A stretch of DNA of 63,179 bases, the filler included, from Vezdaea acicularis (Eukaryota): NCBI GenBank assembly GCA_026025075.1. It is 3 parts of 3 records of this genome, joined end to end, with 100 filler letters (N's around TTAATTAATTAA, not from the genome) between each part and the next. Parts side by side here need not be neighbours in the genome. Positions count along the whole stretch, not along the records: positions 1 to 22,470 come from JAPEUI010000188.1; 2 more parts are not named here. The stretch is one strand, 5' to 3'. The first letter of the stretch is position 1; every line of letters begins with the position of its first letter. A program made the position numbers and the translations under genes. Of this stretch, positions 1 through 63,179 are shown piece after piece. The notes beneath the pieces were generated by a model. The model saw only the letters and a list, made by a program, of their open reading frames with translations. It had not been told where the DNA came from and ran no database searches.

Positions 1-1854
1 GGGCCGGCGCCGCTTTGGTCGTGCAGCTCCCTGCACCCGACTCCCACGCCGGACCCTTTTTTCTCGTTGGGACGCAGCTGAGTCTGGTGCAGTCGCGGCA
101 ATCTGGACCTCGCCGCCAAGCCCCGCGTTATCGGATATTCGTAATTCATGCTGGCGCGATGCATTCTCGCTCTCCAAGACGAGCAGCGTTTGCATGTGCG
201 AGAGGACGTCGCAGGAAGCTCGAATCGATATTGTCGATACGGGATGCCGTCGAGCAGCCCTCGTCGTCGCATCGTCCTGCAACGGGCGACTCGGCGCCGC
301 GGATGGGAAGGTGCTTGGCGTCTGGGCACGCTGATCAGTCCCTGGATCGCACCGTTTGGAACCAGCGCACAGTGTCTTGGAATGCGCCTCTGCATCCGCC
401 CACCCAAGATCCAGGCCGGAGATGGGGATATCTCGTTCACGATGCAAGAGAAGCCGGAACAGCTGCGTCATGCTCAGGATCTCTCCGGTGCGAATTGTTC
501 GCGGATTCTCTCCGCCTGTGATGGAGTTCCAGCCACCGCCATGACGAGCGAGGTCGCCCCACGGTGCAGGCCTACAGTAGACAAACGTCGCGAGGGGCGC
601 TACGACATGTCGAGGGAGCCAGGGGGAGCTCGAACGTGCATGCAGCGATTCTTGCGTCGAGCACTATTGAAATGGATGGTCGCGGGCCAGGGCAGCTGCA
701 GCCTTCTCGGCGGTTGTTGCGCTGGTCATACGAACGTCCAAGACGTCGGAGCCCTTTCTTCGCGCCTCTCGCCGTGCCCATTCTCCATTCTCCATTCTGC
801 CATCTTCCTGTGCTTCCATCGCCTCTGCGCCGGCTTCGATTCAATAAGATAAGGTGCGCGGAGCCTGCACGGCCTCTGCAAGCGCGACAGCGTCGTGGAG
901 CGTCACGCCACCGCGACACCTTCCCCAGTGACATCCACTCGCCTTTCCGCCTTTCGTGCCTCTGGCCGGCCGGTGATTGAGCCCCTACCGCTTCCCGGAG
1001 GACCCGACCTGCCACATTAAACCACTGCCATGTGCACCTCATTTTTCTGAGAGACCTCCCCTGGAATCCCGAACATTGCTACCACCGCCCATTTCTCATG
1101 ATCTAACCCGACCTCTCAATCGACGACCATCCGCAATTGAGCGGCCGCCGATTCGTTTGTCGAGCCCTTGCCGTGGCCCTGGCTTGCAACTGGATTGGTG
1201 TGCCTTGCAGCAGTAGCCGAACGCTATTCGATCCATACCCGAGAAGCTGCCCAAGCTGCCTCATGAGAAACTCCACGGCCTCCTCCAGATCGCTGACGGC
1301 CTTGTGAGACGGAGCAACATCGACGGAGCGAGGTGAGTGAACGATCCAAACAAACACCGCAGTCCGTCCTGAGCGGCCACGAGTCGATTGGGCCTGGAGT
1401 CTATCTTCCTTCGTTCGCTTTTGGCACGGGCGTCGTTTCGTGAGTCGAGAACGCTGGCTGACGAGACTTTTTTTAGGGCCTCCTAGCTGGCTGCGTGCAG
1501 AGCAAGCCATTGTGCACGTCTTTCGATTGCTAGCCAGCCTGCGAAGCTCCATACGCTTATCCGAGAGCCGTCTCCATCTTACCCTCTCTCACTTCTCCAC
1601 CTCTCCACTTAATCCTCTCCGCCTCACCCCGTTATTGCACGAACTGATTACAGAGGGTCCGTGTACGGTTGGACGTCATTCTACCGGGCCTCCCTTACAA
1701 CCTACCTGTGCTGTCTGACCCAATTCACCTCTGAATCAATCTCCTCATCGAACTTGACGAGTCCCTCAGCTTTCGACAACCCCTCTCCTCATCTCGTCTT
1801 CAAATCAATTCCTTGACCAACAAAAGTCGCAGCTGCCTCGAACAAACCTTCATC

Positions 1855-2427
1855 ATGTCCTCCAATGAGAAAGTAGGGGGGGAGGTCCTTCCCCCACCAG
1901 CCAAACCTGCGGCAGTTCGAGTGAACACCACAAACAATGCAGCATGCAACCTGCCGACCATCGACGACGTGGATTCAGCGAGAACATTGACTCCCACGAC
2001 GACCTGCGAGACGCCGAGGGAAGAGCTGGGATCACACCCGTTCTCCGCATTCTACTGCCACCCGACCACCCGATACTCCTTTGAGGTTCAGAAGAGCGAG
2101 TCGAAGCCCATCATCAATGTCATGAGCGTCGACCTAGAAGCCTGTCGAGGAGTCAAGTCGTTGGACTTGGACCAACAGAGGAAGGACTGTACGGTCTGGC
2201 CCGGTAAACAGACCAAGCGGAGCTCTCTCAAGCGATGCCGCCAGAAGAAAGGTCCTGTCGCCCGGTTCAAGAGTCTCAGCCCGAACGTCAGGCTCTTGAT
2301 CAAGGTCTTGCTAGTACTGGTCGTCCTTGCTCTTGCCATTGGATTGGGACTTGGCATCTCGAAAGCTGTGGGCGGGGGAGTCTACAAATCGTCCACGCAG
2401 ACGAACGCCAGGATCGGTAGCCGGTAG
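1855..2427 (+). CDS. Hypothetical single-pass membrane protein
   Basis: Intronless ORF from ATG 1855 (MSSNEKVGG...); basic stretch followed by a hydrophobic helix LLIKVLLVLVVLALAIGLGLGIS near the C-terminus; pyrimidine-rich 5' flank. Confidence 0.7.
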   Translation: MSSNEKVGGEVLPPPAKPAAVRVNTTNNAACNLPTIDDVDSARTLTPTTTCETPREELGSHPFSAFYCHPTTRYSFEVQKSESKPIINVMSVDLEACRGVKSLDLDQQRKDCTVWPGKQTKRSSLKRCRQKKGPVARFKSLSPNVRLLIKVLLVLVVLALAIGLGLGISKAVGGGVYKSSTQTNARIGSR

Positions 2428-3260
2428 ACTTGTTCGAGGTCTGCAACACCAATATCTAGCCCCGAATGTAACCGTTATCTTGTTGAGTCAACCATATCAG
2501 ACGGAAACTTCGGTCCAGGACCTCTCATCCAACGCAATCTTCTGCGTCTCGATCTCGACTCGGGCCCTCGGGCACCCTTTCACATTCGCTCATACGCTTA
2601 GCTATCAGACACACTCGGCGTCTGTATTGTTCCCCTGGTTTTGGTCTAGGTCTGAAACCTCGACAGTCTCCGTCCTTAGATCGTCTGTCGACCCTTCACC
2701 TACGCTCAATAAATACGCCCTCTTAATCTCACCAAGTACAAGACTGCACCCGCTCTCATACCGGTCTCTTGTCGCCTCCCCCACCTTTTCTATCCACTGC
2801 TCGATCATCACCATCATCCTCATCCTTTCTCCTTGATACTACACCTGTCTCTACATTCCAGCATTTCTCAGGGCGTTCTCAATAGCATGTAACTACGGCG
2901 TTTTTCTCCTTTTCATCCATCCATCCGTCAAACTTGGCCCGAAGCCTACTATCGCCAGCGCGGCGGTCAAGGCCTTTCTTGAGCTCTCCCTCAGTGTCTA
3001 TTTTTTGGGTTTCTCTCTCGCAAGGGCGGGGAAGACTCGTAATGTTAGAAAGCTTCTAGGCAAATCGAATAGATGGACGTCCCAGTGGCGCTCGGGTTTT
3101 CATGGAGCCCGCTCTTTTGCTTTGCTTGTGGCTTGCTGTTGTGCGTAATATCGACACTCTGAAACCCCCCCCTCCCCTCATTATCGCCGCTATAGTAAAT
3201 GCCTTTCGCCAACCCCCTTCCTGTAGACATACCACAGCGCCCATCATGATGTGTGATACC

Positions 3261-6070
3261 CGTAACGCGAACAAGTGGTGCCCCACGTGAGGAAGTGGAA
3301 AAAGGCACGTGAGATGGGGGATTTTTGTGTCATGTTAGGGGGGGTTAGGGTGGGTTCAAGATGAGGACGTTTTTGGATCGCGGGTGTCCCGCAGGTGAGC
3401 GAGGGGGACCGTCTGCTAGCAGAGAACAAACTCCTAACGCGAAAACCTCCTTCTCACGTGATAGAGAGGGGAGAGCACGTGAGAGGCGAGTTTTTACGTT
3501 GCGTTTGGGGGGGGGGGGGTATGGATCGTTCGGGGCCCGCAGGCGAACCGCAGGAGTCCCACAGGCTAGTGGGCTTTCGAAGCGGTTGACAAAATTGATG
3601 GCGCATAAGCGAACAGTGGGTATGTTTACCCATCGGCGTGCGTTACTCTTAGCATTTCCCAGATCGTTGGCAATCCATAACAATTACTCTTAGTATGAGC
3701 TTGATAGTATCACGTCTTGGTTTTCTTTGAGGTATCATGCTCTGGGCTATGCGTACGACCTGTTCAGGCCGTTTGGGGCCTTCAAGCGTCTAGCATTTGG
3801 CTACTGGGGAGCCTTCGCTTATGCGCCATCAATTTTGTCAACCGCTTCGTTTGTTAGCTGAGGGATGATTGCACCACGAAAAGTACGATTCACGTGATAG
3901 GGGGAGAAGAGCACGTGAGAGATATGGATTTCGTGTTGCGTTGGGGGGTATATTAGTCGCGCGCATGATACTCGAGACGCGAAAAGTCTGGTTCACGTGA
4001 TAGGAGGGAGAAAGCACGTGGGGGGTGGAGTTTTGCGTTGCATTCTCGAAGCGAATAGGGCAGAATTCTTTTAGTCGTACGTCACGCCAGGGCTGGCGCC
4101 CAACGATTGCGACGCGAAAATCATCCATTCACGTGATAAAAGCGGAGAATCACGTGGAAAGATGGATTTTGCGTTGCATTCTCGAAGCGAGTAGGGCCAC
4201 AAAGCAGCAAGGCACGCCGCGCGGTAAATGCGCGATGGCAAATGCATGATCGAGACGCGAAAAGTTGCTTCTCACGTGAGCTTTGTGGAGAAGCACGTGA
4301 GGTGGTGGTTTTCGCGTTGCATTTTGAGGCAACGCCCCTAAACGTGCGCGACGATGGCCCGGGCGCAGGCGGCACGCACGGTCATGGGGGCACGAGTCCG
4401 GGTAATTGAAACGCGAAAAGGGGTTTCTCACGTGAGCAAGGGGGGAGAGCACGTGAGAGGGTTGTTTTCGCGTTGCATCCTCATGCGCAGTGGGTTACAT
4501 GGGAGTTGCATGATCCTACGTGGGTTGCATTACTCCAACGTGGGTTGCTTCCAGGGTATGCCGCAGCGGGCTCCCCGCAGTGTCCCCGCAAGCGCCCCCG
4601 CACAGGCATGATAGTCGTAACGCGAAAACCTTCTCATCATGTGAATGTGAGGGAAGGGCACGTGAGGACGGGGTTTTTGTGTTGCGTCAGTGACCGTCAA
4701 CAGGAAGGCATTATGGGATGGATCGCAGGCGTGGCCGCAGGGGAGCCGCTACGCTTGTCGAGAGGATGGTTATCGGGACGTGGAAAGTTGTGACTCACGT
4801 GATAGAATCAGTAGAGCACGTGAGAGTGAACTTTTTGCGTTGCAGGTTTGGCATTGAGATAGGGCCGTCAAAGATGAGGGCATTTACGGATCGCAGGGGA
4901 GCCGCAGGAGAGCCGCAGGAGCCCCCGGCCCTGAGCTGCTTCACGACGTCTGGAAACCGCAACGTAAAAAGTGATCTATCACGTGATAAACAGGATAAGG
5001 CACGTGAAATGGTAATTTTTGCGTTGCATCCTCAAAGGAGCCAACGCCCAATGCATGCAGTGCCTGATCGGCAAAAACATCGCAACGCGAAAAAGGGCCG
5101 ATCACGTGTAAAAGAGCAATATTCACGTGAGGGAGGAGTTTTTGTGTCACGGTAGTGATTGTGGAGGCGAGGGTATTTATGGATCGCAGCGGTCCCGCAG
5201 GGGAGCCGCCGGGGAAGCCATAGGGGGATGGATCGCAAGGGGGATCGCAGGCGTCCCGCAGTGGGTCGCGCAGGGCAGCCGCCATGCTCGTCGGGAGAAT
5301 GATCGTAACGCGGAAAGTCTTTGATCACCTGAGAGGGAGGGAAGAGCACGTAAGGGGACGGTTCGTTACGTTGTGTCGCTGACCGTCGATATGAGGGCAT
5401 TATGGATCGCAGGCGTGCCGCAAGGGTTGCGCAAGGGAGCCGCAATCCCCGTCGGGATGCGGGTCGTGATGCAAAAAGTGATGCATCACGTGAGAAAGTG
5501 GAACGGCACGTGGGGAGGTGGCTTTCGTGTTGCGTTGATAACAGTCAAGGTGAGGGTATTTTGGGAAAGTATTTTGGATCGCAGGGGAGCCGCAGATGTC
5601 CCGCAGGTGACTGCTGGTGGAGGGTGACCGTAACGCGAAAACTCAGTCATCACGGGATATCAGGGGGTGCGCACGTGAGAAGGTGATTTTCGCGTTGTGT
5701 TCAAGATGAGGGGGTTATAGGTCGCAGGGGAGCCGCAGGCGTCCCGCAAGGCGGTGACGACTGCTAGCAAAGAATGAACGCAACACAAAAACCATAGTCA
5801 CGTGATATGGGAGGACGGACACGTTGTGTTAGGGAGGGTCGAGATGAGGGGATTTTAAATAGCAGGCGTGCCGCAGGGAAGTCTATCGGAATCGATGATC
5901 GTAACGCGAAAAGTCATAGCTCACGTGAGAAAGGAGAATAGCACGTGGGATTGAGGTTTTTGCGTTGCGTCTTCGTGCGTGTAAACGCATGCAGGCATCA
6001 ATCAAATTTATGCAACGATGAATTGAATGTCTCACGTGAGATCACGTTGACCTGGAGATTCGGCGTTGCA
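3261..6070 (+). repeat. Array of ~16 quasi-palindromic ~71-bp double-CACGTG cores with variable linkers (array 1)
   Basis: Cores start near 3261, 3435, 3871, 3973, 4109, 4251, 4408, 4616, 4774, 4958, 5081, 5304, 5466, 5629, 5779, 5900, plus a degenerate one at ~6011; consensus CGYAACGCGAAAA-N-TCACGTGA-N-GCACGTG-N-TTTTGCGTTGC. Confidence 0.9.
3578..3849 (+). mobile_element. MITE copy 1 (272 bp, perfect 36-bp TIR, TSD TTT), inserted in array 1
   Basis: CGAAGCGGTTGACAAAATTGATGGCGCATAAGCGAA at 3578 and its exact reverse complement ending at 3849; TTT on both flanks; homologous copies at 29024 and 32730. Confidence 0.9.
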
Positions 6071-6342
6071 GGTGGCTGAGCTTCCGCCTGCAGCACGGGT
6101 GGCACACCCCCATCATTGGGCAGGAACCTGCAACAGCAAACTCGTCGTCATTTGCGGCTCTTCATTGAGGGCACCGCGTAAAGCCGAACCCCGCAAAATG
6201 CCCCCACACGCAAGAGTGCCGAGGACTGGTCATTGACCAGAGGACGAGTACCTCGGGCCGATCTAAGGCATGATGAAGCTAGCAACATCTACGCTGCTCT
6301 CCTGTGCCTCTTGCGATATCTTCGCAACTTGACATTGCACCG

Positions 6343-7963
6343 ATGGTTTCCGCAATTCGGGTCGCGCCCTCTGCGGCGAAACGGGCATTGAATCTTCTGC
6401 GGACGGTGCAATATACCCATCCACCGTCATGCCCTTGCCACTCTGCGCCAGGCCATCATCACAACGCGCCTGAGCTGTTGAGTAGTGCACGCCGCTCGCT
6501 GGCAACGCCGGTCGATGCCTCGCGACAAAAGGAGTATGCGTTCGAAATGGCTGGTCGGTTCCGTCAATTGAGTTCTCCACTTCCTTGGCTGACATCCTTG
6601 GAATAGCAAGCTCCATCAGGTTTGGTCCGGGATGTACTCGGGAAGTGGGCATGGACTTTAAGAATATCGGTGCTCATAGGGTGGTGGTGGTGACCGACAA
6701 GAATGTCGCCAAGCTGGATGCTATGAAACAAGTTCAGGAGGGGCTTGAGGGGGAAGGCGTGGAGTATACTGTCTTTGACAATGTTAGGGTGGAACCAAAG
6801 GATAGCTCGTGAGTCGCATTTATTTACAAGAATTGAATCCGAGGGCAAGTGTCTCTATCAAAAACACCATTTGCTAATGATGCTAGCATCATAGGATCAA
6901 AGAAGCCATTGACTTTGCAAAACCATATAGTCCAGACGCATTCCTTGCCGTAGGTGGCGGTAGCGTCATAGATACAGCGAAGCTCATGAATCTCTACACC
7001 TCATTTCCTGACGCCGACTTCCTCGACTTTGTCAATGCACCATTGGGAAAAGGGCTTCCCATCACGAAGCCTTTGAAGCCCCTGATAGCTGTACCAACTA
7101 CCGCTGGGACGGGCTCAGAGACTACTGGAACAGCCATCTTCGACCTTGTAGCCAAGAAGGCGAAGACAGGCATAGCTCATCGAGCCCTCAAACCCACCCT
7201 CGGCATATGCGACCCCCTGAACACCCGCACAATGCCTTCGGCTGTCCACGCCTCTTCAGGTCTTGATGTCCTCTGCCACGCTCTTGAATCCTGGACCGCA
7301 ACCCCATACTACGAGCGCATTCCGCGTCCCACTAATCCCATCAATCGCCCCGCCTACCAGGGCGCGAACCCTATCAGCGATATCTTCTCACTGCAGGCGT
7401 TGCGCGACACAGTCAAGTACCTCCCTCGCGTCGTCAAAGACCCCGAAGACTACGAAGCTCAAAGCCAGATGCTACTCGCCGCAACGCTTGCCGGTGTTGG
7501 ATTCGGAAATGCGGGCGTGCATCTCTGTCACGGTATGAGCTATCCGATATCAGGCCAGAACCCCGGCAACTACAAACACGCCGGCTACCAGGTCTCCTCG
7601 CCCATCATCCCGCACGGCGTCAGTGTCGCCGTCACAGCCCCAGCGGTGTTCAAATTCACCGGCGCATCGAATCCGGAGAGACATCTGGCTGCGGCAGAGA
7701 TCTTTGGCGTTGATATATCGAACGTTAAGAAGGAGAGCGCGGGGGATGTGCTGAGTGAGGCGCTGAAGGAGTTTTTGGTGAAGCTGGGGGATCAACCAAG
7801 GGGTCTGACGGCGATGGGCTTTGGAAAGGAGCATGTGGAGGCTTTGGTCGAGGGCACGCTGCCGCAGAGGAGAGTGTTGATGCTAGCGCCAAGCTTGAGT
7901 GAGGAAGTGGGGGAGGAGAGAGAGCAGTTGAGGGCCCTGTTTGAGGAGGCCATGGAGTATTAA
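6343..7963 (+). CDS. ADHFE1: Mitochondrial hydroxyacid-oxoacid transhydrogenase (iron-containing ADH family); introns 6554-6606 and 6809-6894
   Basis: Motifs EYAFEMA/ASSIRFGPG, AVGGGSVIDTAK, IAVPTTAGTGSETTG, GNAGVHLCHGMSYPI, PHGVSV; splicing restores the frame; N-terminal targeting-like peptide. Confidence 0.93.
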
Positions 7964-29460: not shown

Positions 29461-29945
29461 ATGGAAAGGTAGACGGCGGGCCAATCAACGTCCACCATGA
29501 AACGGGAGTAGAAGGCTGGCTAAACAACGCCCACCCTGAAAGGAGAGTAGAAGGCTGGCCAATCACCGCACGAAAGCTACCTAAAAAAGGGAGTAGACGG
29601 CTGGCTTATCAACGTTTCAAAGAACACGCTAAATGGCGAGTAGACGAGCGGCCAGTCAACGCCCACCCTGGAAAGGGAGTAGACGGCGGGCCAGTCGGCG
29701 CCCACCCTGGAAAGGGAGTAGATGGCGGGCCAGGCAACGCCCACCCTGAAAGGGGAGTAGAAGGCTGGCCAATCACCGCACGAAAGCTACCCAAAAAGGG
29801 GAGTAGACGGGCTGGCTTATGAACGTCGCTAAGAGCATGCCAAACGGCGAGTAGACGGCTGGCTTATGAACGTCGTTATGAGCACGCCAAATGGCAGGTA
29901 CACGTGCCGCTAGTCAACGCCCACCCTGAAGAGGGAGTAGACCGG
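29461..29945 (+). repeat. Minisatellite of mixed 39-bp and ~46-48-bp units
   Basis: Recurrent GGAGTAGAYGGC(G/T)GGCC..CAACGCCCACCCTG(G/A)AA; about 11 units. Confidence 0.85.
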
Positions 29946-37539: not shown

Positions 37540-37637
37540 CTAGAAGCGAGAAACAGAACTTAGGTGACCGATGAGCCTCACTCTACCGCTCTCTAGAAGC
37601 GAGAAACAGAACTTAGGTGACCGATGAGCCTCACTCT
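37540..37637. repeat. Perfect 45-bp direct repeat (period 53) upstream of the Est1-like gene
   Basis: CTAGAAGCGAGAAACAGAACTTAGGTGACCGATGAGCCTCACTCT at 37540 and 37593. Confidence 0.9.
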
Positions 37638-38983
37638 GCCGCCTCCGGGAGAGAATATATATGAATGAGGCTCTTTCGGTGAACGTGTTGGTGTGATTGT
37701 ATTCTGGTGCGCCAGCTAGAAGGCAAATGTGTTCACTCGGTTTTCCCAGAGTACGAAGCGTGAGTTGAATTGCATCTCCGGTTGGCAACGCACGGTCAGT
37801 TGCCTACCTACTACCTTACAAGTTAGGCAACCAACCACCCAGCGAACCGATGCGACCCACCGCGAAAGCGCGAGACCTACACCCCACTTATATAAAGACT
37901 TCTCGACTGTTTCTCATCGCAATCATTCCGAAGTACTCAAATACACCTACAAGTTTGACTTTCCACGTAAGTCGTCCCGACTGGTCTCACGGCATGCCTC
38001 GTCACAACATATACTAGACCTGCGGAGAACTTTGTGTCTAGCATCGTTCTGCAAATGGAGAGGTCACACGTTACCGACGGTGGTCAATGCTAGATTCATG
38101 ATATCGCCTGCGCCTATCCGACGTAGGGGGCGAGGCTGAGTAGCCTTCTCCGGTTTGAGCAAGCTGAAGGCAAAATAAGTAGTCAGGCTCCCCACCGTAC
38201 ATTGCAGGGATGTGACTTCTTTTTAACAATAGGATTTTGCCGTGAACTCCGACGTTTTATGTCCAGCCGCGTCGTTGCTACCAGCATGACACTTGTGGAG
38301 CCTCATAGCCTTGGTGGCCCTCCTGCTGTTAAATAGCATTGGCTTCTCAATTGCTGCGCACCTTTAATCGGGGCGACGGACAAAAGCGAAAGCCTGACTA
38401 AAATCATCCCGTCACAAGACCCGTGTGTTCCACTGGTACGAGCCTATCTTCTATGTCCGCTTAGAGCTTGACGCGTTCGATCGTGGCGAGGTCCGATTCA
38501 TAGCAAGCCGAGGCGATGCCTACAAGGTTGGCCGGTTACATCACTGTCATGAAAAACCTCAGGCATCACTACATATGCGCAGGGGGCCTACTCGCTGCAA
38601 GACAAAATGTGAGGAATCTACTTAGGCTCTCGGGTGAAAATGTGAGCAGGAGTAGTTCCCTACTTGCGTGTTTGTGAAACGTGGTCTTGAATAACGAGCA
38701 TTGGTTAGTCACTCTGTGCAGAAAAGGATCTTAAGAAATATTCAGGAAACACTTGAGATAGTCAAAATTTATTGGCATAATGATCACGACCAGCCATGCC
38801 ACTCCGCTGGCGTGCATGTCTTTGGAGGCAATGTGATTGGAGGGTATGCAAGACGGGGCACCTCCATCGAATCGGAAGGGGCAAACAGACCTTTGAACCT
38901 AGCCGCGCGCACGAAACCTTCAACGACAGAGACCGCATGGGCCTAGACAACCTGCTCTTGCGTTCTGGACGCGTTACAGGAGT

Positions 38984-41050
38984 TTGATTAAATGGATTCC
39001 AAGAAAGTGTGAGGTAGATTACGTGACTCTATTCGAATTTTTGGCTAATAGTGTCGCGGTTAGGTTGAGAGATGTAGTCGAAAACATAGGCAAAGCGGAT
39101 TACCGTAGTGCAGCTTACGTGAAGAGCACTAAGCCTTTGGGAGAATATATTGATGGAAAACCTGGGATGCTACCGATGGATAGGTTCTTTAAGACACGCT
39201 GGGAGGGCGATATTATAAGCAATCACATATCAGGGGGCCCACCTGAGAACTCAACCTACACGCCTATTTCGATGAAAGCGCCCTATAATGGTCCTTATGG
39301 GCAATTTCTGAAAGAACAGAGTGATCACGAACTTAGCGGCCGGATCAAAGCTGGCTGGTCAGGCCGAGGACGTCATGCGCTCTTCAAGAGAGACCATGAA
39401 GTTCTCGAAGTCTTGACTCCAGATGGATTTCTCGGCCAAGGTGGATACAGTGTGGTACAAGCGGTTAAATGCGTTGCGTCAAATGGAGTTGAAGTTCGCA
39501 TCGCTCAGAAGGTCATTCAAACGGAGTCTGATGATGATGTCAAGGAGATTCTAAAGGAGATAAAGCTTATGAATAGGCTAAAACATCCACATGTGATACA
39601 GCTAGTCGGCACCTACCTCCTAGCTCGCAAGATCAATATATTGATGTATCCCGTTGGAGAGGATCTGCTTGCCTATATGACGAACATCGACGGCAACGCC
39701 CCTTTCAACGAAGTTCAATCACTTATACGCTTTATTCCTTGTCTTTCCGGTGCTCTGGAGTATCTGCATCGTGTTGGAGCGCGACACATGGATCTCAAGA
39801 GCGCAAACATCATTGTGAAGCGAACAAGCAGCATTACTAGAGTATATATGAGTGACTTTGGACTTTCTCGCGATTTCACACCCTGCGGAGATAGCCGGAG
39901 TTCAGGTCCCGTCGCATTTACCAGGACATACGTTGCGCCAGAAGTTGCTCGCTGCGAGAGCCGAGGTCGACCGGCTGACATTTTTTCCCTTGGGGCTATC
40001 TTCTCAGAAATATTAACAGAGGTGGCATCTTGGCTTCCCTCCCATGCTCTCTATGCAGAGCTCGAAAGCAACTTTCCCCTGCTGAATCTTACTAATTTCC
40101 GAAAATATCGTACAAATAAGGATGAGAAGCAAACACCGGCATTCCAGTGTAACCTAGAAAACGTTAGTAGGTGGCTAGGTTTTTGTGTACGAGTTATTAT
40201 ACGCCATAGGGACATTCTTACGCTTCCAATCTCCGAAAAGACGCTCCTGAATATGCTTCGGGACGACCAGAGCTTACGTCCTTTAGCATCTGATCTTGTC
40301 ATCGAATGCGGTTCCTGGCCTTGTTGTGCCTCTAATGATGATGAATACGACCAATTTTGGCCTGAGTCGAACATGGTGGATACTACGTCAATAAAAGAGA
40401 CTGAGATGGTCGTTGGCCAGCTAGCTCATGATTTGACCGAGCCTCCTTTAGTTAAGAGGATACGTGATGCGAATGAGCCGGCTGCTCAAATGAATGATTT
40501 TGAAGAACCTTCCCCGAACATGGCTGGTGCTGGAAGATATCCTAGACCGATAGTAATTGAAGAACCTTCCCCGAACATGGCTGGTGCTGGAAGATATCCT
40601 AGATCGATAGTAATTGAAGATAGCTCTACTGAAATCGAAGGCTTCGACGAAGATTCTGAGGAAGAGCCTCTGATTGAGTTTCCATTCTGGCGAGGAGACC
40701 ATGAACTAAATACATACATCCACAGCGCTGAAGGTATCGATCTTGCAATATTTAGGATACGAATAGTCCAGTATTTAGGAACAAATGCTACCGTCAGAGC
40801 TACGACTATCGAGGTAAGCTGGCAAGTTACCGGGTTTGTTAAACACAGCTAAATATTCCTTCAGGGAAGACCAGTGTATCTTGTAGAGGCTAGTCACGAT
40901 CTTTTACCACAAAATCTAGCAGAGCTTAAAAGTATTTCATCTGCACATAGAGAGCGATCGCGCAACCTAATAGGCATACGCAAGAATAAGGTACCGTTTA
41001 AGCAAAATGAAAGGTCCTATCTTCAGGTGGGTGATACCGTTTATAAGTAA
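38984..41050 (+). CDS. Fungal Ser/Thr protein kinase with a C-terminal RfeG-like domain; intron 40814-40864; start uncertain
   Basis: LGQGGYSVV, IAQK, HMDLKSANI, SDFGLS, YVAPE, ADIFSLG; spliced last exon GRPVYLVEASHDL...; first in-frame ATG at 39167. Confidence 0.8.
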
Positions 41051-56870: not shown

Positions 56871-57327
56871 TCAATCGCCATCCCCCTGCCTCTCCTTCTC
56901 CCTTATAGCTGTCATCAGCTCATAAAGCTGCCCTAACTGTTGATCTGCACCGTCGTCAGTTTCATTACACCTATTGAAGTCCAACCCAAGAGACAGAAGC
57001 TTTACCACTCATCTTATCAATCTTTCCCCTATCAAGCGTTTCCCCCTTCCAACTATCTCCCTCAAGCTTCTGCGCATACATCTGCCATTCAGTCAAGAAC
57101 CCAATAATATGCACCGGATTCTCCACCGTCTTATGCGCACGGAATTCGCTCTTCACGTACTCATCCCCCAGAAGCCGCATTTCTTTGGGCAGTTTATGTC
57201 GATGCGCGCGTAGCAATCTTCTGTAGAGCAGAAGGGGTGGAAGGAGGGCCATTGGAGCGGGTTTGAACCCAGATGTCGAGCCCGCGGCAGTAGGCATTGC
57301 CATTAGGGCACGGATTGTGAGATGCAT
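56871..57327 (-). CDS. SDH7: Succinate dehydrogenase assembly factor 3 (LYR family); intron 56945-57005
   Basis: LLPPLLLYRRLLRAHR, LGDEYVKSEFRAHK, HIIGFLTEWQMY, MS/DQQLGQLYELM. Confidence 0.92.
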
Positions 57328-57507
57328 AGTTGTGAATATCCAACTTAGAAAGACAACAGGAACACGTATGGAAAGCTACAGTGTACTCATTTGTAGGACT
57401 TCGACTTGATATAGTCGATTAAGTCATCGGCCGAGATTCCCCATATATTTTGGATGGACTAAAAAGCGAAGCGCAAATATCACTATCTTTCGTCCTGCTC
57501 CCCTATC

Positions 57508-58880
57508 TGCAATGCATAATCCATCTCGCCACGTGCGAAGTGGCCTTCATCACATGACTTTCACAATTCTGCGTTACATAAACCGTAACAGCGCTGTCAA
57601 TCGGAGGCGGAGGCACCAGTACACCAAATCGGGGCGTAAGTGTATACACCATAAGGGCCGTGACGGTTTGCGAATCATGCAACGCCATATCCTCCATATC
57701 ACGTGCCCAATTGTTCTCTCACGTGAATCGTTCACTTCTACGTTGCATCACGCGGTTAACAAAATAACCCGCACACCGTACGGGTCAAAAGAGGCAGTTT
57801 TCGCTTAGAAGCAAGGTACTTCTCCACCTAAATTTGCTGGTAAGGTACCTCGCTAAGCCCTTGGTGTGCGGGTTTTTTTGATAACCGCGTGGCATATCCA
57901 TGAAGCATGTCTCCATTTCCTTGAGGGATATCTCTCTGCCCAACACCACAGCAGGGCGTAAAGCTTTGCCCAACACCATATAGGAGCATATGCAGCATCA
58001 TGCGATTCCCGACTCCATCTCGTGCAACGTACAAGTCGTCTAATCACGTGTGATCTAGTCTTCTCACGTGGGCAGCTCACTTATATGTTGCATAAATATG
58101 AGGCATATCCTGTGTACCTTGCGGGATATTTCTCTGCCCAACACCACATCGGGGCATATGCCACACCCAAGATTCCCAAATTCTCTCCCTCCTGCAACGT
58201 ATAAGTCGTCAAATCACGCAGATACTCAGCTTCATCACGTGGGTATTTCACTTGTACATTGCATACGTTCCTAGAATCGGCATGCACTGGCTACTCGATT
58301 ACACCTAAACTGGGCGTAAGTCAAAATAGCCCCATGGAACGGCGTTCCACCTCTTCCCTGCAACGCCAAATCCTCATTTCAGGTGCACAACCGCGAAGTC
58401 ACCTGGCATGGCATATCCTTTCCCCTAAATCATGAGACATTCGATTTTTGCATTGCATAAATGCCTGGTTTGCGGCCAGATCCTGCATCCTCCACACCAA
58501 AGTCGGGCGTAAGCCTCCACAGCGCCGGAGCCGGCATCGCATGAAGCAAGTCGCCGCCGGGTCCGTCTCCTGCAATACTCAATCTCACAAACGACGTGCT
58601 TGACCGTCTTTATCACATGACATTTCCACTTCTGTGTCTCGATGAAAATTGCACTTCTGATTACTAACTTAGCTGACTGAGGGGCGTCACCCAAACTGCA
58701 ACACTAAAACCTTCCATCCATGTGCCTTGTCATTTTCGTCACACGATGCTTTCATTTTTGTGTCTCGATAAAAACATCTCAACGGCATAGGGAGCAGACC
58801 GGGGCAACAGTCGCCCAAGCTGCAATACTAAACCCTCCCCTCGCGTGCCTGGCCATCTGTTTATTTCATTGCTTTCATCC
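57508..58880 (-). repeat. Second, more degenerate array of the double-CACGTG core, in reverse orientation (array 2)
   Basis: Cores at 57508, 57678, 58023, 58193, 58359, 58571, 58697, 58821: TGCAAC/T..CACGTG..CAC(G/A)TG..TTYTRYGTTRCA or TTYTGTGTCTCGA, with the same ~22/21-bp spacing as array 1. Confidence 0.8.
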
Positions 58881-60987: not shown

Positions 60988-61185
60988 TTACATTTAGGCG
61001 ATTGGTATTTGTACACGGGTGTGTAGTATTTACACCACCCCCCCCCCATAATTAGCGACCCGATAGTAGAGCACCTCCTACGTGAAGATATCGAAATAAC
61101 CCATGCAACACGCTCTTTATCACCCCGTTCGAAAGCCCATTGCCATCCCCCACCCTAGGGCCACCGCCTGACACCCTAGTGACCA

Positions 61186-62301
61186 ATGGGGGGCGCCAAA
61201 TGGCCGTCCGTGGGCGTCCAGCCACAAAACATGTACGACCATGCCACGCAACTCATCGCCGACGTAGAAGCCCTAGAGATAGGCATAAACGCAGAGCAGG
61301 GAAAGCCACGAAAGCAGATACCAGCCGAATCGATCCTACCCTTCCTCCGAAGCTGCAAGAAGCCCGCAGAGAAGGCAAAAGATCAGCCATCCTTAAAGGA
61401 CTTCTCAGCCCAGCTGGAAGCGAGCTTCAGGGACGTTAAATCGATAAAGGACGACATCAAAGTCGTCAAAAACACCGTCACCAACACCCCGCTCCCGCAA
61501 CGCCAGGGCTCACAGCCTTCATCATACGCCAAAGCCGCCGCTTGGGCCGCCAACGCCGCATCAGCTAGCCCCCCGCTCTCAGGCATCATCCCCACGTCAA
61601 ATCTGACCAGCACAGCAACAGAGAAGGAAAGAGTAGTGATCATAAAACTGGCAGACCCAGACCAGATAGAAGCGGCCAGAGGACAGCAACCCGCCAACCT
61701 CAAAATACAGATCGACACAATCATGAAACAGAGCTCCAACACCCGCATCCGAAACACAAAGATAACCGCCGCCAAACAGCTTAAAAGCGGAGACCTGGCG
61801 ACATACACAGCTATGCCAGAAGGAAACTACTACCTGAAACGATACGCAGACGATTGGGTGAAAGGTCTGGGCCCACACGCATACATCCCCATCCCGACAT
61901 ACGAAGTCATCATGCATGGCATCCGTTTGGACACAATAGACATGGCAAAACAGACGGAGATGGCGATGGAGCTCAAGCAATGGAGCAATCATGTCATACC
62001 TAACGCGGAGATCAAATACATGGGATGGCTCACAAAGGCAGGTGGCTCCAAGAAAGTCTCATCGATGATTATCGAATTCGCAGACGCGGAGGACGCCTCA
62101 ATGCTAGCAAGAATGATGCTCATGTATTGCTCTTTTCTATTGGATCCGCCCATATCGGATTTTACGATCTACCAGGAAATCTGTCGATTAGATGCGCTTC
62201 ACTGTCGTGGGATCTGCCCATGTGTGACCTTTTCTTATAGGATATTACCTAAAGTTATCCGGCAAGCCTGCCGCTTCTGCGTTATAGGCGATCCCCCATG
62301 A
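61186..62301 (+). mobile_element. Truncated ORF1 (gag-like) of a fungal non-LTR (Tad1-like) retrotransposon
   Basis: SYAKAAA, ERVVIIKL, AAKQLKSGDL, TYEVIMHGI, YMGWL, SSMIIEF motifs; homology breaks near 62100 before the expected zinc knuckle; no RT ORF follows. Confidence 0.7.
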
Positions 62302-62365: not shown

Positions 62366-62600
62366 ATGGGATGATCCCTTAGGGCGTACCGGCAGTCTTA
62401 CTGCTTTCTTTACCTTGTGGAGTCATCCCTCATGGGATGGTCTCTCAGGGCATACCGGCAGTCTTACCGCTTTCCTTACCTTATGGAGCTATCCCTTATG
62501 GGATGGTCCCTCAGGGCGTATCGGCAGTCTTACCGCTTTCTTTACCTTGTGGAGTCATTCCTTCGTGGGATGGTCCCTTAGGGTGTGCTGGCAGTCTCAC
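62366..62600. repeat. 66-bp tandem repeat, ~3.5 copies
   Basis: ATGGGATGRTCYCTYAGGGCRTAYCGGCAGTCTTACYGCTTTC... at 62366, 62432, 62498, 62565. Confidence 0.88.
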
Positions 62601-62959
62601 CTGAGACGGTCGCCTACTTAGGTATCTCAGTTACCAGCAAAGGTAAGATATGTTGGGAAGGTATATCTTGGATTGCTATCTTGATATAAGCACGAGTCCT
62701 CCATAAGGGTGGACTCGCACTCCTATATAGAAGTCTAGTTTGTGCTGTGACCAGTGGTGACTGCCACGACCGGTGATCCAAACCGCCGGTCACACCAGGC
62801 ACGCCCGGCGAGGTTTTGGTAACCCGTCCCCGCCATTTGTGCATCCTGCGTAGTTGGTCTGCCCTGCATCCCGCCTACCTCCGGTGGTCGTTGACTGTCA
62901 GGACCGTCGTCCGTAACATTTACCAGGCTAGTTGTTTCAAAGAAGGTGCTAATTTTCGG

Positions 62960-63179
62960 TAGGGCACCAGTTTCAGGTAGGTGCCAGTTTCAGGTAGGTG
63001 CCAGTTTCAGATCGGTGCCATCTCCAGTAGAAGCCAATTTAGGACACCCGTCTCAGGTAGGTGCCAGTTTCAGATTGGTGCCAATTTTAGTGGGGCGCCA
63101 ATTTCAGGTAGGTGCCAGTCTCATTAAGGTATCAATTTCAGTAGATTGCCAATTCAAGTAGAGCATTAATTTCAGTAGG
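62960..63179. repeat. 17-bp minisatellite (GTGCCAGTTTCAGGTAG), running to the window end
   Basis: About 12 progressively diverged copies. Confidence 0.85.

Follow-up and report, generated by a model that had tools for sequence, protein, structure and literature searches.

Two non-coding arrays of a mirror-symmetric four-site module, a putative composite protein-binding platform, in the genome of Vezdaea acicularis

Results

Anatomy of the arrays

The window analysed here, i.e. the whole stretch of 63,179 nucleotides from Vezdaea acicularis (assembly GCA_026025075.1; three parts of three records joined end to end), holds two non-coding arrays of a short, mirror-symmetric module in which two CACGTG boxes (E-boxes) are enclosed by a pair of inverted arms. 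The left array precedes a gene of the Fe-containing alcohol dehydrogenase family, and the right array, inverted relative to the left one, precedes a gene for a LYR-motif protein (Table 1). An earlier reading of the same sequence (the original prediction) had proposed a non-coding array of about 16 cores at the left locus. We find 16 clear cores and one degenerate core there, arranged head-to-tail and all on the + strand; the right array, a module in the linkers and an inserted miniature inverted-repeat transposable element (MITE) are absent from that reading.

Table 1. Features of the window discussed in the text, with positions along the whole stretch. HMM, hidden Markov model; TIR, terminal inverted repeat.
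Feature	Position	Strand	Remarks
Left array	3260-6069	+	16 clear cores and 1 degenerate core
Left-array cores 1-6	3260-3336, 3432-3506, 3868-3943, 3971-4046, 4106-4182, 4249-4324	+	nhmmer
Left-array cores 7-12	4405-4481, 4615-4689, 4772-4845, 4956-5031, 5079-5153, 5302-5377	+	nhmmer
Left-array cores 13-17	5464-5537, 5627-5702, 5777-5846, 5898-5972, 6028-6069	+	nhmmer; right arm deleted in 5777-5846; 6028-6069 degenerate
Representative core	4249-4324	+	left arm ACGCGAAAA at 4255; box 1 TCACGTGA (CACGTG at 4273); box 2 GCACGTGA (CACGTG at 4294); right arm TTTTCGCGTTGCA at 4309-4321
Linker module, example	5540-5629	+	GTCAAG(A/G)TGAGGG..TTTGGATCGCAGG, then 1-3 (G/C)CCGCAGG at ~11-bp steps
MITE	3578-3849		272 bp; perfect 36-nt TIRs; in the linker after the second core
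Right array	57508-58858	-	~8 decayed cores, inverted relative to the left array; periods ~125-345 bp
Right-array matches 1-4	57577-57508, 57746-57676, 58075-58023, 58245-58193	-	core HMM
Right-array matches 5-8	58402-58359, 58643-58592, 58769-58694, 58858-58830	-	core HMM
Small inverted-repeat insertion	57749-57891		143 bp; 29-nt arms, 93% complementary; between two right-array cores
Fe-containing alcohol dehydrogenase family gene	6343-7960	+	PF00465, PF25137; intron after '...KEYAFEMA'; downstream of left array
Complex1_LYR_2 family (LYR-motif) gene	56974-57330	-	PF13233, 1.3e-22; downstream of right array
Conserved hypothetical gene	1735-2424	+	~190 aa; upstream neighbour of left array, 3' end towards it; no Pfam family

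The cores have the layout YGNAACGCGAAAA-N8-TCACGTGA-N13-GCACGTGA-N8-TTTT(C)GCGTTGC, a mirror-symmetric module of ~73 bp, with core lengths of ~73-77 bp in the left array. The distance between the boxes is 21 bp for 13 of the 16 cores, among them one with divergent boxes (CACCTG at 5326, CACGTA at 5347), and 22, 20 and 20 bp for the remaining three, exactly as originally counted. The arm sequence ACGCGAAAA starts 18 bp before the CACGTG of box 1 in 12/16 cores, and GCGTTGC starts 20 bp from box 2 in 11/16. The distance of 22 bp given earlier for the left arm is correct if the arm is taken to begin four nucleotides further out, at YGNA, and does not apply to ACGCGAAAA itself. With these four extra bases the outer arms are inverted copies of the 13-mer YGNAACGCGAAAA, so that each unit is bounded by TIRs. 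At box 1 the sequence is TCACGTG in 12/16 cores, and the left arm is exactly ACGCGAAAA in 9/16; in the right arm the full CGCG is often missing, and the variants TTTTGCGT and TTTTCGCGT occur five and three times, respectively, in the window.

These motifs are concentrated in the left array. The interval 3284-6033 contains 28 of the 47 CACGTG sites of the window (base composition predicts 15.8 for the entire 63 kb) and nine of its ten ACGCGAAAA sites. All nine exact occurrences of CACGTG-N15-CACGTG fall inside the array, compared with none in 100 dinucleotide shuffles. A profile HMM built from the 16 cores found all of them again on the + strand with E values of 2e-19 to 1.5e-8, a recovery by construction, and added the degenerate 17th core at E 1.3. 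Scores of the 16 cores range from 31 to 66 bits, with 46-66 bits in 15 of them and 31 bits in the core that lacks its right arm.

The units form a tandem repeat in a single orientation, with periods of 103-225 bp plus one of 436 bp that spans the inserted MITE. Tandem Repeats Finder, run on the window, did not detect the left array, because the units are too diverged. The array is non-coding: its periods are not multiples of three, the open reading frames (ORFs) that overlap it have no Pfam match, and the Rfam covariance models gave no match at E<=1 on either strand of 2500-6800. GC content is 0.52-0.56 in the two arrays, and GC skew in the left-array region amounts to +0.16 to +0.29, with a contribution from runs of G behind several cores; the run directly 3' of the right arm of the second core consists of 12 G (3508-3519). 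Just one G-quadruplex motif was found in the array, and TTAGGG is not enriched.

Linkers and insertions

In nine of the 16 left-array linkers the cores are followed by a module of the form GATGAGGG..TGGATCGCAGG with one to three further copies of (G/C)CCGCAGG at ~11-bp steps. The + strand of the left array contains the hexamer CGCAGG 18 times, the - strand not once. Since this module is common to many units, the duplicated unit comprises core and linker, i.e. ~150-170 bp. Linkers of the cores between 3868 and 4481 are shorter and differ in sequence. At 4899-4909 an 11-bp deletion polymorphism, seen in contigs of the metagenome runs X1 and X2 (described below), removes one CGCAGGAGAGC repeat of the linker module, so the copy number of the linker repeat varies within the population.

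The MITE in the linker after the second core is a multi-copy element in the metagenome: its summed depth in run X1 is 80.6, as compared with ~8-9 in its flanks, and it is carried by up to 14 contigs. In all four runs it is found on contigs with differing flanks, and contigs end loosely at 3577/3578.

Conservation is restricted to the motifs and their spacing

Among the 16 aligned cores, the motif columns (38) have a mean pairwise identity of 0.83, as against 0.40 for the columns between the motifs (29) and 0.39 for those outside them (29; chance level 0.26-0.31), the three classes having been picked after the alignment was seen. The columns between the motifs are near saturation, with the observed 0.40 against 0.31 expected from their own composition. 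The earlier claim that the bases between the motifs differ freely from unit to unit needs qualifying, since purines make up 72% of them on the + strand (G 0.43, A 0.29).

A clustering test that requires no definition of motifs was also applied. Identity reached at least 0.7 in 31 of the 96 columns, and these were distributed over 17 runs, compared with 43 +/- 4.2 when columns were shuffled (0/20000 shuffles as clustered); the lag-1 autocorrelation of column identity was 0.70, with a permutation maximum of 0.39. Uniform divergence across columns, the outcome that the original prediction had set against itself, is therefore rejected. In the motif columns 62 of the 608 cells deviate from consensus, 46 of them by transitions, and consensus CpG columns are not enriched for deviations (20 deviations in 11/38 columns). 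The observed/expected ratio of CpG is 1.18 in the left array and 0.89 in the window, and the conserved blocks are themselves rich in CpG, which argues against neutral or methylation-driven decay at this site and is compatible with protection or selection there.

It is improbable that the array is a neutral minisatellite in which the conservation of the motifs arises as an artefact of motif-based finding and alignment, combined with concerted evolution. Several observations are of the kind that such an account would predict: the most degenerate cores stand at the edges (46 bits for the leftmost, E 1.3 for the rightmost), the adjacent cores at 3971 and 4106 have common flanking sequence that betrays a recent local duplication, a linker carries the 11-bp indel polymorphism, and other minisatellites are found in the genome. 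However, concerted evolution homogenises whole units rather than four blocks of 8-13 bp, and the contrast between the blocks and the nearly saturated columns separating them is large. The clustering test is independent of any motif definition, the cores tile the left array without long core-free gaps, and the independent right array exhibits the same conservation profile (see below).

The dyad symmetry of the core also raises the question of base pairing. We rejected the reading of each unit as a hairpin, either in a cluster of structured RNAs (microRNA-like precursors) or as a DNA cruciform at a recombination or replication site, and regard it as scarcely credible. The mean folding z-score is indeed -2.75 on both strands (16 cores, 100 dinucleotide shuffles each), but palindromic motifs produce such folding trivially. 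The covariation term of RNAalifold is -0.02, with compensatory changes in just 2 of 18 pairs, and spacer pairing (52.9%) is within the range of shuffled partners (50.4 +/- 2.5; 99/500 shuffles as high), while a register slid by +1 gives 57.9%. The absence of Rfam families at E<=1 points in the same direction.

A second array with the same architecture

Searching the window with the core HMM yielded eight matches at E<10 in the right array, four of them at E<0.001; elsewhere in the 63 kb nothing scored better than E 2, and solitary cores are absent outside the arrays. The right cores align to the left ones without indels across the core, with the same blocks at the same distances, and column conservation in the two arrays is correlated (Spearman rho 0.51, p 1.4e-7, 93 columns). 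The linkers of the right array are unrelated to those of the left one, and the arrays are otherwise unalignable. Many CpG dinucleotides have become TpG or CpA in the right array (TCATGTGA, CACATG, ACACA for ACGCG). The right array is a decayed relative. The non-uniform divergence, the fixed geometry and an independent array with the same blocks and distances all agree with the earlier proposal that motif identity and helical phasing are under constraint.

Copies in metagenomes and database scans

For comparison we used Logan contigs of four DNA runs, all moss metagenomes of one study and possibly the source of the window itself; these were the only runs in which the stretch was found, with no RNA run among them. 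Long parts of the left array are reproduced in contigs of the four runs, with the window's own version covered at a level of at least 99%, so the array is not an assembly artefact; contig cover is little or nil at 3138-3371 and ~4400-4570. Non-identical cores and linkers are present at single-copy depth on contigs of the same samples, and variant cores stand on several loose ends. Between the two sides of a joint from 4024 to 5385, seen in three of the four runs, stand 27 unrelated letters, which themselves read as a variant right arm. The variants listed for the array proper (MITE excluded) comprise four substitutions and three indels, all outside motif columns, a result that is not significant (~0.18, motif columns making up ~22% of the array) and that leaves aside 71 further variants beyond those listed.

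A specific pattern of the module had no match in the metagenome contigs of the Joint Genome Institute (JGI), and scans of prokaryote genome contigs and of viral contigs also gave none. A looser pattern matched eight loci in the JGI contigs, each once and none with an array or an arm motif; we treat these as chance matches, their number being near a rough chance estimate (GC 0.57-0.71). Literature searches on these motifs and on repeats, some of them pairing CACGTG with repeat or transposase terms, gave no description of a comparable fungal element among the papers listed.

Gene neighbourhood

The ATG of the alcohol dehydrogenase gene (~6343) lies ~270 bp past the last, degenerate left core, and that of the LYR-motif gene ~180 bp from the innermost right-array core. 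Both genes are transcribed away from their array, and each array has the polarity of the gene it precedes, a 2/2 agreement whose chance probability is 1 in 4.

Scanned against Pfam, the 68 stop-to-stop ORFs of at least 130 aa in the window revealed ~20 housekeeping genes, ordinary and single-copy, between the arrays (6.3-57.4 kb), which are 51.5 kb apart in the window, and no transposase or recombinase domain. The genes encode the Fe-alcohol dehydrogenase, a glycosyltransferase, an Fe/Mn superoxide dismutase, a Polyketide_cyc (polyketide-cyclase/dehydrase-family) protein, a methyltransferase, a ubiquitin hydrolase, an autophagy E2-like protein (Autophagy_act_C), a family-2 glycosyltransferase, an EST1-domain protein, a protein kinase, a PI3/PI4-kinase, a DEAH-type helicase, proteasome beta 2, a nucleoporin of the NUP159/214 family, a CCDC124-family protein and the LYR-motif protein. 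Deposited proteins match the proteasome beta-2 fragment at no more than 89% identity, the best matches being from Acarospora, Sclerophora and Xylona.

On the other side of the left array, the conserved hypothetical protein has 38 homologues, with identities of 35-56% in Vezdaea, Geoglossomycetes (Trichoglossum, Geoglossum), Xylona, several lichen-forming fungi and others. A 98% identical copy exists in other assemblies, and the source of one of the homologues gives it the name 'transmembrane protein'.

Some further features of the window were recorded. An ORF of 372 aa at 61183-62298 has no Pfam match and eight distant homologues (22-38% identity), mostly metagenomic. An intergenic minisatellite at 29469-29940 consists of ~11 copies of a 39-47-bp unit (GAGTAGACGG..GTCAACGCCCACCCTGGAAAGG) that is A-rich on the + strand; its CAACGCCC is also present in two E-box-array linkers, near 4330 and 5040. 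Tandem arrays at 62366-62601 (66-bp unit, 3.6 copies) and 62944-63161 (17-bp unit CCAGTTTCAGGTAGGTG, ~9.5 copies) occupy the right end of the window and may have caused the contig to end there. Tandem duplications at 37540-37642 (53 bp) and 40500-40620 (57 bp) are near-perfect (98%), the latter lying inside a long ORF with a protein-kinase domain (38903-40849).

Discussion

The account that we favour, albeit tentatively, is that the two arrays belong to a lineage-specific, dispersed, satellite-like family of non-coding repeats in an uncultured Pezizomycotina fungus from a moss metagenome, and that the units carry a geometry-locked composite module predicted to bind proteins. The resemblances of the motifs to published sites, as put forward in the original prediction, agree with the literature. 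Published sources give TCACRTG as the site of Cbf1, i.e. centromere DNA element I (CDEI; PMC2926612), ACGCG and CGCGAAA as the MluI and Swi4/6 cell-cycle boxes (MCB and SCB, respectively; PMC526180) and CGCGAA as the consensus of SBF (PMC4862756). Box 1 (TCACGTGA) fits the Cbf1 site, and ACGCGAAAA contains both the MCB ACGCG and the SCB CGCGAAA.

The four blocks may accordingly be read as putative protein-recognition sites that purifying selection maintains. Two dimers of a CACGTG-binding basic helix-loop-helix (bHLH) factor, with a flanking T of the Cbf1 type, would occupy the two E-boxes, and the pair would be bracketed by two molecules of an SBF/MBF-type (APSES-related) factor that reads ACGCG/CGCGAAA. 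A distance of 21 bp corresponds to two helical turns, so the two E-boxes face the same side of the helix, and most linkers carry, in addition, direct CGCAGG repeats at one-turn spacing. Some 16 such repeats, 270 bp upstream of the ATG of the neighbouring gene, might together form a multivalent docking platform of high avidity, which could serve as a hub or sink for transcription factors, or as an upstream activating or boundary element. The symmetric binding platform predicted earlier is plausible in this light; protein binding, the identity of the proteins and the functional outcome are what we infer from motifs and geometry.

Several points weigh against this interpretation. The right array is clearly decaying, with HMM scores of at most 27 bits as compared with 31-66 bits for the left cores, so not every array is maintained, and both arrays have tolerated inverted-repeat insertions. 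The end cores of the left array are degenerate, as in ordinary tandem arrays under concerted evolution. The apparent motif conservation is inflated because the cores were located through their motifs, an effect that is limited by the tiling of the array. The agreement in polarity between arrays and genes would arise by chance with a probability of 1 in 4, and a mobile origin accounts for the dispersed distribution more easily than a host regulatory one does. Finally, one genome was examined, and selection is read from paralogous repeats only.

The main rival, a selfish origin without host function, is possible, though we consider it less likely. The units would then be a non-autonomous DNA element of the MITE or foldback type, or a satellite derived from one, with arms and boxes as sites for a transposase or for propagation; the motifs would look conserved since only copies with intact sites had propagated, and immobile arrays would decay. 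The dyad symmetry of each unit and its TIRs are as expected for such an element. So are the dispersal of the family, with arrays of two different subfamilies in the 63-kb window and variant cores on other contigs, the decay of the right array, and the occurrence of other MITEs and several other minisatellites in the genome. Links between transposons and satellites are reported in the literature (PMC4079207, on the Tetris foldback transposon, and PMC10048060).

On the other hand, the scanned ORFs include no transposase domain, and the core HMM found no solitary copies in the window. Units within an array all have one orientation and the linker is duplicated with the core, which points to tandem duplication rather than to repeated insertion, and no target-site duplications were seen around the units when the sequence was read by eye. 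The arms do not covary, and complementarity does not extend along the arm length as in a foldback element. The inverted arrays enclose ~20 housekeeping genes, including those for proteasome beta 2, the NUP159-family nucleoporin, the Autophagy_act_C protein and the DEAH-type helicase. Selection on internal units of an immobile array would not be expected from a selfish element, yet 15 of the 16 left cores score 46-66 bits. Two related candidates were rejected on the evidence of the window, namely subterminal arrays of an autonomous transposon, and a giant, Starship-like or foldback composite transposon bounded by the inverted arrays; the 51.5-kb interior consists of housekeeping genes, with no transposase or recombinase domain. 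The selfish account and the favoured one can be combined, as a transposon-derived satellite that carries, or was co-opted for, putative transcription-factor sites.

The original prediction had also suggested a centromere-like role, which is unlikely. More broadly, an element for chromosome maintenance, be it a centromere-like, a replication-origin or a partition-type array, is very improbable. Tandem dyad-symmetric sites, two-turn phasing and a CDEI-type motif would suit it. However, two arrays 51.5 kb apart in the window and more copies elsewhere do not, the arrays are embedded between ordinary genes and are not AT-rich, and equivalents of CDEII or CDEIII were not seen on reading the sequence by eye. 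A point centromere, with its single locus per chromosome, AT-rich CDEII and CDEIII, was rejected in view of the two GC-rich arrays in the window.

A more far-reaching proposal is that the module represents an undescribed class of fungal cis-element, i.e. a dispersed, iterated four-site dyad module, maintained by the host, that would co-recruit a bHLH factor and an SBF/MBF-type (KilA-N-derived) factor and act as a hub, as an insulator or in nuclear positioning. On the present sequence evidence we regard it as unlikely.

If the blocks are occupied, the array would be a natural fungal case of a repeated, geometry-locked composite platform, on which the cooperative assembly of bHLH factors with SBF/MBF-type ones could be studied. 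The question of how regulatory DNA arises from tandem repeats, or persists in them, in compact genomes that otherwise purge repeats would then be touched as well. If the family is selfish, it would be a new repeat family in poorly sampled moss-associated ascomycetes, with short, diverged units that persist in a GC-rich state. Either way, the HMM and the motif geometry provide a concrete probe for scans of fungal genomes.

Comparison with known systems

Tandem repeats with conserved boxes are a known kind of element; new here are the second array, the linker module, the MITE insertion, the arrangement of arrays and genes, and the copies elsewhere. Foldback elements, MITEs and the subterminal repeat arrays of transposons have inverted arms, arrayed short motifs, inverted arrays and, probably, dispersed copies in common with the present family. 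Unlike them, the window contains no transposase, target-site duplications or solitary copies, its interior of 51.5 kb holds housekeeping genes, and the spacers are not complementary beyond what composition gives.

The Saccharomyces cerevisiae point centromere (CDEI-CDEII-CDEIII) has a CDEI-type TCACGTG in common with the cores. In contrast to it, no AT-rich CDEII and no CDEIII were seen here, and the motifs are arrayed, with at least two arrays in the window, in GC-rich DNA. The Epstein-Barr virus oriP, with its family of repeats (FR) and dyad symmetry element (DS; EBNA1 sites spaced by 21 bp), and the stability locus (STB) of the yeast 2-micron plasmid are repeats that serve as origins or in partition. 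They resemble the present arrays in their tandem dyad-symmetric sites, two-turn pair spacing and multivalent tethering, whereas the arrays described here are chromosomal, lie between housekeeping genes, have unrelated motifs and are not associated with replicon genes.

Promoter elements of the Cbf1/CDEI and MCB/SCB (MBF/SBF) types in ascomycetes are similar in site sequence, and the arrays likewise lie upstream of genes. Known promoters of these types have one or a few sites, whereas the left array has ~16 composite modules of predicted sites over 2.8 kb in fixed phasing.

Alpha-satellite with its CENP-B box is an example of satellite DNA that carries a conserved protein-binding box. The likeness to such satellites, and to dispersed satellites or those derived from transposable elements (PMC10048060, PMC4079207), extends to head-to-tail non-coding units of ~100-225 bp, diverged subfamilies that probably occupy several loci, degenerate units at the edges, polymorphic indels and a box that is better conserved than the monomer around it. 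Unlike these satellites, the arrays of V. acicularis are short (1.4-2.8 kb), GC- and CpG-rich and placed immediately before single-copy genes, not in heterochromatin, and their units hold four boxes whose dyad geometry is strict (18, 21 and 20 bp).

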